A DNA stretch of 32,000 bases from an uncultured Clostridia bacterium (GTDB lineage: Bacteria > Bacillota > Clostridia > Oscillospirales > Acutalibacteraceae), in the NCBI GenBank assembly GCA_937880805.1, contig CALGRR010000004.1, positions 56,984 through 88,983 of the forward strand. Direction: 5' to 3'. Shown piece after piece: positions 24,062-28,935 of the stretch (position 1 is the first letter of the stretch; every line of letters begins with the position of its first letter). The position numbers were made by a program, and so were the translations under genes. The notes under the pieces are model-generated. The model was not told the DNA's origin. It was given only the letters and a program-made list of their open reading frames with translations, and did no database searches.

Positions 24062-24091
24062 CGTAACATTTTGCAATTTTCGTCATATATA
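24062..24091 (+). repeat. Copy A of a 30-nt shared promoter/operator block, in inverted orientation relative to copy B at 28906-28935
   Basis: CGTAACATTTTGCAATTTTCGTCATATATA versus the reverse complement of 28906-28935, CGTAACATTTTGCGATTTTTGTCATATATA: 28/30 identical. GTTTGAAA also recurs upstream of both (24038-24045; reverse complement of 28944-28951). Confidence 0.85.
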
Positions 24092-24099
24092 AATAGAAT
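24071..24099 (+). promoter_or_regulatory. Candidate promoter of the 95-aa gene, inside block A
   Basis: TTGCAA (24071-24076), 17-nt spacer, TAGAAT (24094-24099). Confidence 0.55.
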
Positions 24100-24130
24100 G
24101 CATTTTAAATTATATATGAGGAGAAATTTT

Positions 24131-24418
24131 ATGAGTATTGAAAACATAAGTAATAAAGAATTTTTAGAAATCTTATTTCGGGTTTTTAATGAAGAATTAG
24201 ACTCCGAGATTAATGAAGATTATCTGTTAACCACCATATCAAACGAATTAAAAAAATCTAAACATTTAATAGATTATACTTTGATTCATGAATGCTCTTT
24301 AACTCTGTCTGAATGCTTTGGCTACTCATACCATAATGAATATGAGAAGCTGTCTAAAAGACAAATTAAAAGGAGAAAAAACATCTATAAAATTAAACAG
24401 TTGTTTGTAAAAACATAA
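24131..24418 (+). CDS. Hypothetical 95-aa protein, convergent with the four-gene operon and sharing its upstream block
   Basis: The ATG at 24131 follows GAGGAG. The tracked TTG start at 24071 coincides with the -35 box. No recognisable family. Confidence 0.6.
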   Translation: MSIENISNKEFLEILFRVFNEELDSEINEDYLLTTISNELKKSKHLIDYTLIHECSLTLSECFGYSYHNEYEKLSKRQIKRRKNIYKIKQLFVKT

Positions 24419-24470
24419 ACATCAATTTTAAATATTAATATGGAACTGAATTTATAAATTATAACTATAA

Positions 24471-24512
24471 AACCTAAAAACCTTCTTATTTCCAGTAGAA
24501 GGTTTTTAGGTT
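24471..24512. terminator. Bidirectional terminator between the convergent units
   Basis: Perfect 16-bp stem AACCTAAAAACCTTCT / AGAAGGTTTTTAGGTT with a 10-nt loop. Confidence 0.8.
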
Positions 24513-24585
24513 TCTGCTATGTCATATAAATAGATAACACTTATTTTTTAAAAATATCCTTTGATAAATATAAGTGTCTCAAAAA

Positions 24586-25884
24586 TTATAAAATTCCAAT
24601 TTCACTTGGCATAGGGTATACGCCTATTCTTTTTCCAAAGTTCTTTGCTAGTTCATTGTTTTCTATGAAAACAATTTTTTTGTTTTTTCTATATGCATAG
24701 TCCAGTTCAAAGGTTGTTGAAACCCCAATATAATTATCAAAATTACACGCAATAACAAAATCACATTCATCAATTGCCTTTAGATGTAATTCTTCTATTA
24801 ACCAAGTGTTATGATTTACAACCACATCATCTTCAAACACAACAAAACCATCTTCATCTCCAACCACCTTAGTACACTTAGGACTTAACACTTTAATATG
24901 ATTCTTATTAAGTTTATTTATTAGAAGTCGAATTTCTGATAGATGCTTGTTAAAGCTTCCGCAAATAACTGTCTTTTGCGCTTCTTGAACATTTACGCCA
25001 TCAATTAAATTCGCGTTTGATGGGACAATATATTTTACATTATAAAATTCACAAATCGCTTGAGCTAGTGCTGAACAAGCTCTGGCACCGCACATCCACT
25101 CCGGATTAGCTGGCATCATACTTTTTAATTCTTCAAGAGTAATTAAAGAAAACACCTCTGCGTTTCTATTTGAATAATCATCAAACCCAATCATATACGG
25201 ATGTGTCGTATCTACAAAAAAACGATTCGTTGTTAAGGGATATTTAGCACACATCATATAGTCTAATTCTCCGCCTGTATATATAGCAACATCATATATG
25301 TCATTATTAGGTGTTAATTGTTCACTAATTTTTTCAAGTATATCTCTAACAATGACACCGAGTTCATATTTGCTATATGAATTATTAATTTCAGGATATC
25401 TATTTAATACCGTGCCTACTCCAATAGATATTTTTTCGGTGATATCAACAACACCATTGCTACAAAGCAAAATTTCAGTTGTTTTTCCTCCGATATTTAT
25501 GACAAGCATTTTTTGTGCGCTTTCGGGAACCTTATTAAGCCATGCTTTTTCTAAATAGAAAGCCTCTAGTTCATGAGAAATAATGTTAAAATACAAACCA
25601 GTTCGAACAAAAAACTCTTTAATTACAGACTGCTTATCATCGATTTCTCTAAAAATCCCTGTTGCATATAGCTTTGAATTGGAGTTCGTTAATGAGTATT
25701 TCTCAATTAGTATTCCAAAAAAATCAAATAATAATTCTTTGTTCATTTCGGAAAGTCCATATGTAGATGAAAAGCCTTCCTTAAAGCTAAACGTTTTTTG
25801 TTCTATTAGAGAAATAAAACTATCAACTTTTTCATAAACTTTAATGGTTGAAGAACCCATATCAATTAAATATTTTTTATTCAT
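24586..25884 (-). CDS. Fusion protein: Ppx/GppA-like ASKHA phosphohydrolase domain (motifs intact) + C-terminal nucleoside 2-deoxyribosyltransferase/LOG-like Rossmannoid domain
   Basis: The start at 25884 lies 6 nt after GGAGG and overlaps the upstream stop by 8 nt (ATGAATAA).
- ASKHA motifs: LIDMGSSTIKVY (phosphate-1), YATGIFRE, FNIISHELEAFY, LVINIGGKTTEIL (phosphate-2).
- NDT-like motifs: VICGSFNK..VLSPK and CDFVIACNFDNYIGVSTTFELDYAYRKNKKIVFI (conserved Glu). Confidence 0.8.
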   Translation of the reverse strand: MNKKYLIDMGSSTIKVYEKVDSFISLIEQKTFSFKEGFSSTYGLSEMNKELLFDFFGILIEKYSLTNSNSKLYATGIFREIDDKQSVIKEFFVRTGLYFNIISHELEAFYLEKAWLNKVPESAQKMLVINIGGKTTEILLCSNGVVDITEKISIGVGTVLNRYPEINNSYSKYELGVIVRDILEKISEQLTPNNDIYDVAIYTGGELDYMMCAKYPLTTNRFFVDTTHPYMIGFDDYSNRNAEVFSLITLEELKSMMPANPEWMCGARACSALAQAICEFYNVKYIVPSNANLIDGVNVQEAQKTVICGSFNKHLSEIRLLINKLNKNHIKVLSPKCTKVVGDEDGFVVFEDDVVVNHNTWLIEELHLKAIDECDFVIACNFDNYIGVSTTFELDYAYRKNKKIVFIENNELAKNFGKRIGVYPMPSEIGIL

Positions 25885-27280: not shown

Positions 27281-27365
27281 AGTCAATCCCTTCTTTCACT
27301 TGTTTTTATAACAAACCAATAATAATTTTATTTTCTTATTAAAATAATCATATCATTAAGAATAT

Positions 27366-27950
27366 TTATTGCATATCCAACGAAGAAGTTTCCGGTTCAA
27401 TACGTAAAAAGCTATTCAGATTTAAACAGTCTACTATTTCGTTTATTTTTTTAACTGAACCTGCATAAAAATCCCCTTCTGAAAGCATTTTTTGAGTGGT
27501 GAATTTTCCAACATACCATACCTGAGGGGAAGTCTTAATACCAGTTGTATCATACTTGAGTTGCATTGCTAACAATATATATGAAGCTATTAACTCGCAA
27601 GTAGAAACTTCAATATTATCATCAGTTTTTGCATAAATCATATTATGAATATAAACGATAAGTTTTACCGCATCGGCAGTTCCAGCACCAATCACCATAG
27701 AATTTATCTTCTCTTTAAGATTAGCAAATCCATCAATTTGCATTTCTGGATATGCCATCTTTTTACAAAGCATATCCACGAAATCCAACACATCTTTTTG
27801 TAATCCATATAAATCCGTCAATTGCTTTTCTGTCTTGAACTTTTGAAGACTTTGCAACGATTCTTTTTTGTTAAGCCCTATTGAAACGATAAATCCTAAA
27901 ACAGAAACTACTGAGGGAATTATTATAGTCAGATAATCTTTAAGTTCCAT
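27366..27950 (-). CDS. Hypothetical single-pass (1TM) membrane protein
   Basis: The ATG at 27950 lies 8 nt after the GGAG core of AAGGAGAG; the ATG at 27956 sits too close to the SD. N-terminal TM YLTIIIPSVVSVLGFIVSIGL, then about 165 aa of helical-looking sequence. No recognisable family. Confidence 0.7.
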   Translation of the reverse strand: MELKDYLTIIIPSVVSVLGFIVSIGLNKKESLQSLQKFKTEKQLTDLYGLQKDVLDFVDMLCKKMAYPEMQIDGFANLKEKINSMVIGAGTADAVKLIVYIHNMIYAKTDDNIEVSTCELIASYILLAMQLKYDTTGIKTSPQVWYVGKFTTQKMLSEGDFYAGSVKKINEIVDCLNLNSFLRIEPETSSLDMQ

Positions 27951-27994
27951 AAACATCTCTCCTTAAATTATTAATCAGTAACAAGTATGTATTT

Positions 27995-28023
27995 AATTTA
28001 TTATGCGTTTGGTAAAATTTCAA
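27995..28023 (-). promoter_or_regulatory. Candidate internal promoter for the 1TM gene, overlapped by a palindrome
   Basis: On the minus strand: TTGAAA (28023-28018), 17-nt spacer, TAAATT (28000-27995). The palindrome ATTTCAA-AAA-TTGAAAT (28017-28033) covers the -35. Confidence 0.35.
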
Positions 28024-28073
28024 AAATTGAAATGTATTTTTGACAAACAAATAAAACATTCCAAACGAGATAA

Positions 28074-28865
28074 TCATTCGTTCAAAAGTCTATCTACATT
28101 ATCTGATATATCACTTAACTCCTTTAGTTTTTTCAATAAGTTCGAATATTTTACTTTAAGAACGAAGTCGCCATTTTTTATTAAGAGTTTTCCTGTTAGT
28201 TGATCAACTTCAAAATATTTTTTCATAAAGCTATAAAAAACACGATGAATTTCTATGCCTTTAAGATTTTTGTTAAACGAATCAGAGATCGATTCTAAAT
28301 CACCGTATATACTGTAAATCAATTTGATTTCCGCATCTTCCATAACATGACAGAGTTTTGCAACATTATGTATCCAATCTTTATCTATTCTAACATTATA
28401 TGATTTTTGAAGTTGAGTATAGTAACTATATGGATTTTTTATCCCAAATATAGAACGATTATGTTTTTCCTCCGCTTTACAGAAGTTAACTTTTGACTCA
28501 TCAATTGCAAAATTAAAATCGTAATACACTATTGTTGCGCTTTCTTTTATTTCTTTTTGTTTGGATTTTTCTTCATGCTTCAACTGTGAATAATGAGCAC
28601 CTAAAACACCCAAAAAAGCACCTAAAAAGGCTCCTGAGAGTGCACCAAGTGTTTCAACATAAGTGCTTTTATATTCACTTGATTTTAAAGGAACTAGTAT
28701 TTTAGATAATAGATTATCTGCAAAGTCAACACGTAAGATAATTGGAGATATTGCCAACAAAATGATAAAAAGTAGGATTAAAAGCATAACAACAAATCCT
28801 GTGGTTTTTACAACAGAGAAAATCGTTATTGGTTTTAGGTGGTTCTTTTTTTGTGTTTTTTTCAT
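28074..28865 (-). CDS. Hypothetical two-pass (2TM) membrane protein with a glycine-zipper second helix and a ~150-aa C-terminal soluble domain
   Basis: Preferred start is the ATG at 28865 (MKKTQKK), 9 nt after GGAAGGA. The tracked start at 29000 runs through the conserved promoter block. TM1 is FVVMLLILLFIILLAISPIIL. TM2 is GALSGAFLGAFLGVLGA (GxxxGxxxGxxxGxxG). Confidence 0.7.
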   Translation of the reverse strand: MKKTQKKNHLKPITIFSVVKTTGFVVMLLILLFIILLAISPIILRVDFADNLLSKILVPLKSSEYKSTYVETLGALSGAFLGAFLGVLGAHYSQLKHEEKSKQKEIKESATIVYYDFNFAIDESKVNFCKAEEKHNRSIFGIKNPYSYYTQLQKSYNVRIDKDWIHNVAKLCHVMEDAEIKLIYSIYGDLESISDSFNKNLKGIEIHRVFYSFMKKYFEVDQLTGKLLIKNGDFVLKVKYSNLLKKLKELSDISDNVDRLLNE

Positions 28866-28905
28866 GTTTTTCATTCCTTCCATTTGATTACAATTTTTGT
28901 TCTTA

Positions 28906-28935
28906 TATATATGACAAAAATCGCAAAATGTTACG
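28906..28935 (-). repeat. Copy B of the 30-nt shared promoter/operator block, heading the minus-strand operon
   Basis: The reverse complement is 28/30 identical to 24062-24091. Distance from block to chosen start codon is 40 nt here and 39 nt at copy A. Confidence 0.85.

Follow-up and report, generated by a model that had tools for sequence, protein, structure and literature searches.

Here we describe a module of three genes, B, C and D, carried by a conjugative element in a 32,000-nt stretch of DNA (hereafter, the window) from an uncultured Clostridia bacterium of the Acutalibacteraceae (contig CALGRR010000004.1, positions 56,984 to 88,983). With a confidence somewhat above even, we take B-C-D to be a variant form of a modular system of defence (conflict), so far undescribed, that travels as cargo of this element. 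Its core would be an obligate pair of paralogous proteins, C and D, encoded by translationally coupled genes, in each of which an ASKHA domain of the Ppx/GppA type is followed by a domain resembling nucleoside 2-deoxyribosyltransferases (NDT). Directly established are the folds of these domains, the paralogy of the two proteins, the strict pairing of their genes, the swapping of effector-type domains around them and their setting on mobile elements and in defence islands.

The initial annotation of this DNA, made from the letters alone, had called a Ppx/GppA-like and an NDT-like domain in both large proteins, and these calls hold at the level of the fold. In the AlphaFold (AF2) model of D (predicted local distance difference test, pLDDT, 91; predicted template-modelling score 0.86; 29-sequence alignment), residues 1-300 retrieve with Foldseek the Ppx/GppA structures of Aquifex, Helicobacter and E. 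coli, with NTPDases next; against 1t6c, 1t6d and 3mdq the E-values run from 1e-17 to 1e-15 and the template-modelling score on the target (TM) from 0.71 to 0.74. The last 130 residues match, in BFVD, a phage NDT (A0A8S5P2V8; E 2e-4, TM 0.61, root-mean-square deviation 3.9, 121 columns) and a second one (A0A6J5SKQ8, TM 0.61), and the profile of this C-terminal domain finds the CMP N-glycosidase MilB (4jen, E 0.0026) as well as NDTs. At the level of sequence families, D matches the exopolyphosphatase model TIGR03706 from end to end (E 3.5e-10) and stays far below the equivalog cut-offs (39.7 bits against 307; 17.8 against 624 for the GppA model NF008260), while it reaches 26.2 bits with Pfam Ppx-GppA (PF02541, cut-off 27) and 18.6 bits with Pfam NDT (PF05014, cut-off 28.8). 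Both Pfam cut-offs are passed by relatives, named below with P-numbers for the family members used in comparisons and L-numbers for loci: that of PF02541 by the solo D-type protein of L051 (44.5 bits) and by the paired P0036 (38.2) and P0031 (34.4), that of PF05014 by P0036 (38.2), P0037 (43.6), P0031 (40.3) and a set of short D partners (37 bits). These short partners constitute a sub-group of their own (L111, L114, L117-L119), about 260 aa in length and devoid of the ASKHA domain, in which the NDT domain is preceded by some 110-145 residues without an identified domain.

Four residues of D, namely D15, E114, E144 and E400, are conserved among its 29 homologues. The first three correspond to the phosphate-1 Asp and to both catalytic Glu of the Ppx/GppA enzymes, which D resembles in fold over some 300 residues; the fourth, the nucleophilic catalytic Glu of the NDT motif G-x-x-T-x-x-E-(I/L)-G-x-A, is present in 28 of the 29 and aligns with the Glu of GTHIEIGWA in MilB. 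Unlike those enzymes, D carries an invariant Asn (N137) at the position of the phosphate-2 Asp, lacks the PPX C-terminal domains, has an NDT domain fused to it and is accompanied by a paralog from which the catalytic residues are gone. On the residues that it retains, D is predicted to be the catalytically competent partner of the pair.

That C is a paralog of D, as had been proposed, is borne out by blastp (E 8e-11) and by hhalign, in which the two proteins align end to end over 391 columns (probability 100, E 1.2e-43). The AF2 model of C (pLDDT 81) also retrieves Ppx/GppA structures with Foldseek (E 4e-13), with a TM of 0.43-0.46 that is below that of D; against Pfam, C has no match, and in its family a near-match to PF02541 is seen only in P0192 (26.5 bits). 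The three motifs formerly read in each large protein, DMGSSTIKV, ISHELEAFY and NIGGKTTE, are those of D, whereas their counterparts in C are degenerate (NFGVTT, LSQKQTEEN and NIGSQYVD): the ASKHA catalytic positions are substituted (D to N, E to T and GG to KD), and the first three catalytic positions of Ppx/GppA are occupied by N, T and D. The Glu of the NDT motif, E420 in C, is kept in 19 of 22 family members and is a Gln in the other three. The C of the window is intact and retains the family-invariant residues, and ahead of its ASKHA domain there is no head, only a disordered N-terminus of 44 residues.

The pairing of the two genes is strict: in all 47 loci that contain a C-type gene, a D-type gene follows it directly on the same strand. 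In the window the two genes overlap by 8 nt, ATGAATAA, with a GGAGG placed 6 nt upstream, an overlap that had already been noted. The proposal of a five-gene cassette, in which a gene encoding a protein with two transmembrane (TM) helices (A) and a convergent small gene (E) flanked B, C and D, has not stood and was rejected. DNA homology to the diverged relatives L082 and L085 (71-78% identity) covers D-C and B and stops at 24583 and 27975; the order B-C-D is found in L082, L085, L083 and L091-93, and B accompanies C-D in three lineages, i.e., the group of the window, L082 (B 76% identical) and L085 (B 62%), the block being kept down to about 62-67% protein identity. In turn, A occurs only in copies that are 97-100% identical (L083, L091, L092) and is absent from L082 and L085, and E only in L083, L084 and L091, at 75-95% identity. 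Since A and E are confined to near-identical copies of the element and the DNA homology does not extend past B-C-D, it is these three genes (24583-27975) that make up the conserved module. Of the two membrane proteins considered as partners of the fusion pair, it is therefore the single-pass B that co-occurs with it across lineages, and not A.

Around this fixed core, what lies ahead of C varies. In most relatives the homologue of C is the C-terminal part, 440 residues long, of a larger protein with about 700 residues, and 31 of the 45 long members of the family bear an N-terminal PNP_UDP_1 head that scores above the Pfam cut-off. On the same scaffold, and likewise above their cut-offs, are found heads of the PRTase-CE (123 bits), SMEK_N (110 bits), SIR2_2 (74 bits) and Peptidase_C14, or caspase, types (57 bits); a TIR_2-like head is weak (24.9 bits), and a metallophosphoesterase-like region ahead of PNP was recognised by eye from its motifs. 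Neither the TIR-like head of P0180 nor the N-terminus of P0233 found a match among PDB sequences. A headless C is seen only where another gene lies directly upstream, be it B, a separate PNP_UDP_1 gene (L087) or a separate NDT/TIR-like gene (L123, L111), and B is upstream exactly in loci with a headless C. By neighbour-joining, the B-type loci group into a single subclade nested among the PNP-fused types, from which it follows that B replaced the PNP head once. Furthermore, two SMEK-headed C proteins, P0237 and P0189, run about 150 residues past the C module; in P0237 this tail is an extra NDT-like domain, judged by eye from the sequence, and in P0189 it is assigned by length and by the matched stretch only. 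These tailed proteins point to C acting jointly with the NDT part of D.

The genomic setting is that of mobile cargo, as had been claimed. Conjugation genes for a relaxase, a coupling protein, a VirB4-like ATPase and an M23 peptidase lie 5' of a block of low G+C content, which holds the five genes and then a XerC/D-like recombinase gene. The G+C content falls from about 0.40 to 0.26-0.32 near position 24000 and remains low; the AT-rich block described earlier does begin after the genes of the type IV secretion system (T4SS), but it does not end before the recombinase, with values of 0.28-0.32 persisting as far as the window extends. A close relative of the element was not found in the plasmid collection.

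The surroundings of other C-D pairs were sampled through 149 neighbouring open reading frames (ORFs) of 21 loci, with raw counts that are not background-corrected and PADLOC results taken as presence only. Among them are five HTH_3, four integrase, four rve, three ParB and two PLD genes, and Gabija occurs in two loci. In L082, D is followed directly downstream by a Gabija pair and a SIR2_2 gene, with an integrase also nearby; near the C-D pair there are PRTase-CE and ORC-CDC6-like genes, a DNA methylase, ParA/ParB and a giant SNF2 methylase in L086, a relaxase and a coupling protein in L003, and a TIR protein in L091. No conserved metabolic operon surrounds the C-D pairs examined, and in some loci the pair lies on a chromosomal island that has no conjugation genes. 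The C family is rarely met: at 90% identity it comprises 73 clusters, and at 50% about 25 full-length ones (about 30 if truncated fragments are included), and the C-D system resides mostly in gut Clostridia, on conjugative elements. A phage origin was considered and rejected, as relatives of C or D were not found in IMG/VR, a relative of B was not found in the GenBank phage collection and PHROGs gave nothing significant.

Beyond these observations we infer a mechanism, which comprises the formation of a complex, its ligand, trigger and chemistry, the respective roles of C, D and B, and an anti-phage phenotype. Because the genes are strictly paired and translationally coupled, and because fusion proteins exist, C and D would form a complex. 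Within it D, whose catalytic acids are intact, would bind and turn over a nucleotide-type ligand, and C, with the same fold and a dead ASKHA site, would be a non-hydrolysing ligand receptor and scaffold that gates an effector. In most relatives this effector would be the domain fused to the N-terminus of C, mostly PNP_UDP_1 and rarely a SIR2, caspase, PRTase-CE, SMEK nuclease or TIR-like domain; in the window, the head of C would be replaced by the separate, membrane-anchored and AbiN-like B, a candidate effector or sensor acting in trans. Infection would shift the level of the ligand that D makes or removes, and C would sense this shift and release the effector, the outcome being depletion of ATP or nucleosides (PNP), depletion of NAD+ (SIR2, TIR) or the cutting of protein or DNA; in the window, B would act at the membrane and abort the infection.

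A more specific version, which we hold as possible rather than probable, would make of C-D an immune pair of enzyme and pseudo-enzyme, with its origin in a house-cleaning enzyme for nucleotides of the type found in bacteria of the candidate phyla radiation (CPR) and in DPANN archaea. D would make or destroy a non-cyclic nucleotide messenger, e.g., a modified or non-canonical (d)NTP or an alarmone, and the dead C would read this messenger and fire interchangeable killers: PNP, SIR2, caspase or nuclease and, in the window, the AbiN-like membrane protein.

The idea of a conflict system, already present in the initial annotation, is much strengthened by the swappable heads of C and by the mobile-element and defence-island contexts, although the unit has shrunk to three genes and follows a different logic. 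Several observations weigh against it. Each of the non-PNP heads is seen in only one or two clusters; the B-type arrangement arose once in our sample, so that its conservation is weaker evidence; and the invariant Asn in place of the phosphate-2 Asp, common to both families, may make even hydrolysis by D doubtful. Moreover, distant homologues of B occur on their own, without C-D (L089, L090 and a C. perfringens phage-plasmid), and AbiN, to which B bears some likeness, is a single-gene system, so that B could be an independent neighbour.

This last point opens the first alternative, in which B and C-D would be unrelated neighbours, B a stand-alone AbiN-like gene for abortive infection or exclusion and C-D the headless remnant of a PNP-type system, possibly decayed or working differently. 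We consider it unlikely, though not negligible. The B family (20 clusters, without a Pfam domain) resembles AbiN in size, both being small proteins of about 180-195 aa, and 10 of its 20 members match the PADLOC AbiN model, the best with an E of 6.2e-6; the match of the window B is weak (13.5 bits, E 0.011), and a profile of the family found nothing among PDB sequences. AbiN itself, from Lactococcus, acts as a single gene by a mechanism that is unknown, and its predicted fold has been likened to a periplasmic ligand-binding sensor domain (2026 review, PMC13064643). An AbiEi-like gene sits between B and C in L082, and a weak promoter match is found upstream of B only, both of which would suit independence. 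Nevertheless, B, unlike AbiN, is kept in one DNA block with C-D in three lineages diverged to about 62-67% protein identity, with homology ending at its borders, and the close homologues of B are always found with C-D. Also against it are a C and a D that are both intact, with the family-invariant residues of C retained, and the confinement of headless C to loci in which B, a separate PNP or an NDT/TIR-like gene stands directly upstream.

A further observation against the conflict reading comes from D-type genes without a partner. A genome scan returned mostly such solo genes, at 37-43% identity, from bacteria of the CPR and archaea of the DPANN group (L010-L081), in which they are widespread; in a neighbour-joining tree they form a sister clade, separate from the paired D genes. 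In 22 of 69 loci the solo D lies within 2 kb of genes for nucleotide metabolism or repair (Ham1, NUDIX, guanylate kinase, a dNMP-kinase-like P-loop protein, MPG glycosylase or a stand-alone NDT), and in L051 it is fused to an adenylate kinase; an NDT+RHH gene is also met among the neighbours of solo D genes. Given these neighbours, the ancestral activity of the D family was probably ordinary nucleotide processing; the basic chemistry of the family may be ordinary nucleotide metabolism, and PNP_UDP_1 and NDT are also salvage enzymes. In reduced genomes the solo ASKHA-NDT protein may serve as an enzyme of nucleotide salvage or house-cleaning, and the C-D pair borne by mobile elements looks like a recruitment of an enzyme of this kind. 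A neighbourhood of nucleotide-metabolism genes, which the initial annotation had taken to count against a conflict role, is thus in part found, in the solo clade, which is separate from the paired and mobile-element-borne one.

The corresponding alternative holds that the module itself serves salvage or house-cleaning, as fitness cargo and not for immunity: PNP would be a nucleoside phosphorylase, and D would combine the activity of an NTP/NDP phosphohydrolase with that of an N-glycosidase or deoxyribosyl-transferase. This view would account for the company that solo D genes keep and for PNP, NDT and Ppx/GppA all being folds of nucleotide metabolism. We give it little credence, however: SIR2, caspase, SMEK nuclease, PRTase-CE, TIR-like and membrane-anchored partners are foreign to a salvage pathway, the ASKHA site of C is degenerate, the paired genes are met in variable mobile-element and defence contexts in place of conserved metabolic operons, and paired and solo D genes belong to separate clades. 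Even less credible to us is a module for counter-defence or addiction, whose task would be to break down, in the recipient, the nucleotide signals of host immunity or messengers derived from NAD, or else to keep the element stable as toxin-antitoxin pairs do: the carriage by conjugative elements, beside ParB, relaxase or T4SS genes in several loci, and the N-glycosidase and phosphohydrolase folds, which could degrade signalling nucleotides, would agree with it, but heads of a toxic type (SIR2, caspase, nuclease) and a membrane protein suit suicide effectors and not signal sponges, no relatives of C or D were found in phage collections or in IMG/VR, which are rich in anti-defence genes, and some loci lie in chromosomal islands without conjugation genes.

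In PADLOC-DB v2.0.0 (E <= 1), A, C, D and E are without a match and B has only its weak one to AbiN; identity with a known defence system was rejected, neither C nor D having a PADLOC match, and the initial annotation, too, could name no system in which ASKHA and NDT domains are fused in a pair of proteins. The analogy once drawn with the system of a 2TM, a 1TM and a TIR protein (Rst_2TM_1TM_TIR) has to be abandoned, since A and B miss its PADLOC models, the cassette has no TIR gene and A is not a conserved partner. Full-text searches of the available papers for ASKHA/Ppx-GppA and NDT domains together, or for either of them with phage defence, gave nothing relevant, and Kaur et al. 2020 do not mention Ppx/GppA-like and NDT domains together.

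The closest working analogue is Kongming (KomA + KomB-KomC), where dITP is read by a pyrophosphatase of the Ham1 type that controls a SIR2 protein. As proposed here, the sensor is the domain of a housekeeping nucleotide enzyme, and it is coupled to a SIR2 killer domain; the solo D clade also adjoins Ham1 genes. The two differ in that their sequences are unrelated, the sensor fold is here ASKHA plus NDT, in an enzyme/pseudo-enzyme pair of paralogs and without a deaminase, and the effectors of C-D are mostly PNP_UDP_1, or a membrane protein in the window. Thoeris (ThsB, TIR; ThsA, SIR2-SLOG) combines a Rossmann-like nucleotide-binding domain and a swappable effector with a partner enzyme that acts on an N-glycosidic nucleotide. 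It shares with C-D the logic of joining a swappable effector to a domain from the TIR/SLOG/NDT assemblage, but the ThsA and ThsB models are unmatched and here both partners have an ASKHA domain and are paralogs. The PNP_UDP_1 effectors of CBASS (Cap17) and Detocs (DtcC) cleave ATP during infection, and the same domain is the commonest head of C; in contrast to those systems, C-D comes without a cyclase or a two-component sensor, and its variant in the window without a PNP domain. An NDT-fold domain is also employed in defence by ShosT of ShosTA. An NDT-like effector takes part in retron-Ec86 defence (PMC13276650). In each of these two the toxin, belonging to a retron or to a toxin-antitoxin pair, is the NDT-like protein itself, whereas here NDT domains stand in both partners, behind ASKHA and in addition to separate heads, and there is no reverse transcriptase, no multicopy single-stranded DNA (msDNA) and no DprA.

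Were this interpretation right, C-D would define a defence family with a sensor core made of an ASKHA-NDT paralog pair, a combination that we found in no described system, and would be, after Kongming, the second case in which immunity draws on the folds of housekeeping nucleotide enzymes. The effector swaps on a single scaffold (PNP, SIR2, caspase, SMEK, PRTase-CE, TIR-like and a separate AbiN-like protein) offer a ready experimental handle, and the solo clade provides a route to the ancestral biochemistry that could clarify the poorly understood handling of nucleotides in CPR and DPANN organisms. Should the enzyme/pseudo-enzyme version hold, it would mean a new immune signalling chemistry and a first mechanistic context for AbiN-like proteins.

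The features of the window are collected in Table 1. All five proposed ORFs are present, four on the minus strand and one convergent on the plus strand. Homologues and ribosome-binding sites place their starts at 25884 for D, 27280 for C, 27950 for B and 24131 for E, and that of A probably at 28865; the starts so set match the gene calls on a public 128-kb contig; the small gene E is real, and NCBI calls the same 95-aa gene. The membrane topologies first assigned to A and B agree with their hydrophobic helices, two in A (residues 25-43 and 70-90, the second being the glycine zipper GALSGAFLGAFLGVLGA) and one in B (residues 7-25). A and E have no family matches, and the window contains no Rfam families and no tRNA.

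Table 1. Genes and sequence elements of the window, in order of position.
Feature	Position	Strand	Remarks
Giant MutS_I + SNF2 protein	26-7510	+	
DUF3991-Toprim	10029-10988		
MobA/VirD2 relaxase	12487-13716		
VirD4-type coupling protein	15538-17376		
VirB4-like ATPase	19580-21934		
M23 peptidase	21927-23933		
Promoter-like block upstream of E	24058-24091	+	Arm of a 34-nt inverted repeat, 91% matched
E	24131-24418	+	95 aa; convergent gene; neighbour outside the conserved module
Hairpin between convergent D and E	24470-24486 / 24497-24513		17-bp stem, 10-nt loop, 100% complementary
D	24586-25884	-	432 aa; ASKHA (Ppx/GppA-like) + NDT-like fusion
C	25877-27280	-	467 aa; paralog of D with degenerate ASKHA residues
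B	27366-27950	-	194 aa; single-pass, membrane-anchored, distantly AbiN-like
Sigma-70-like promoter match	27995-28023	-	TTGAAA-17-TAAATT, 9/12; A-B spacer; consensus only
A	28074-28865	-	263 aa; 2TM protein with glycine-zipper helix; neighbour outside the conserved module
Promoter-like block upstream of A, second copy	28906-28939	-	34-nt inverted repeat, 91% matched
XerC/D-like recombinase	29560-30501		

Between D and E, the perfect 16-bp terminator described earlier proves to be a perfect hairpin one base pair longer, flanked by T-runs on both sides, and is a probable bidirectional terminator. The match in the A-B spacer is a possible promoter of B-C-D; it is weak, the promoter matches of the region being no more numerous than in shuffled sequence. 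The upstream block of 30 nt said to be shared by E and the operon is present as a 34-nt inverted repeat, but it fronts A and not the B-C-D unit. Its extent is about 34-56 nt (window copies at 24058-24091 and 28881-28939), and the copy on the side of E overlaps a promoter-like match, TTGCAA-17-TAGAAT. A third copy, 87.5% identical, precedes a third gene in the related contig (L091:5432-5487), which makes the block a promoter-like element that recurs ahead of cargo genes instead of a boundary of the cassette, and suggests a shared regulator for the cargo genes of the element. Transposon ends were rejected as an explanation of the repeat: its arms face inward before genes, overlap the promoter-like match and have this third copy in L091.

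Some minor observations concern single loci and the rest of the element. In L082 the gene inserted between B and C (L082:3485-4090) is AbiEi_4-like, with a weak score of 20.7 bits. A 30%-identical homologue of B (L120; C. perfringens plasmid NZ_CP075991.1, 7861-8418) stands alone between lysis genes and ParM on a linear phage-plasmid, which fits a self-sufficient function of the B family, of the exclusion or Abi type. The large gene at the start of the window encodes a protein of 2494 aa with MutS domain I (95 bits) and SNF2/ResIII/Helicase_C domains, and the giant SNF2-methylase that neighbours the C-D pair of L086 is comparable to it. At the other end, synteny with the 96%-identical contig of L091 (29560-31676; L091:1-8400) stops 90 nt past the stop codon of the recombinase. 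Past this break the window has an ATP-grasp gene resembling D-Ala-D-Ala ligases (156 bits, cut-off 243), and the L091 contig has genes for a TIR protein, a P-loop protein and an Endonuclease_NS, together with agr genes; as the gene content beyond the recombinase differs between the two, the recombinase is placed at a variable junction. Finally, the 560-nt spacer between A and the recombinase contains, at 29226-29246 on the minus strand, a 21-nt copy of the start of E (MNIENL, then a stop), which looks like the relic of a duplicated or rearranged E-like gene.

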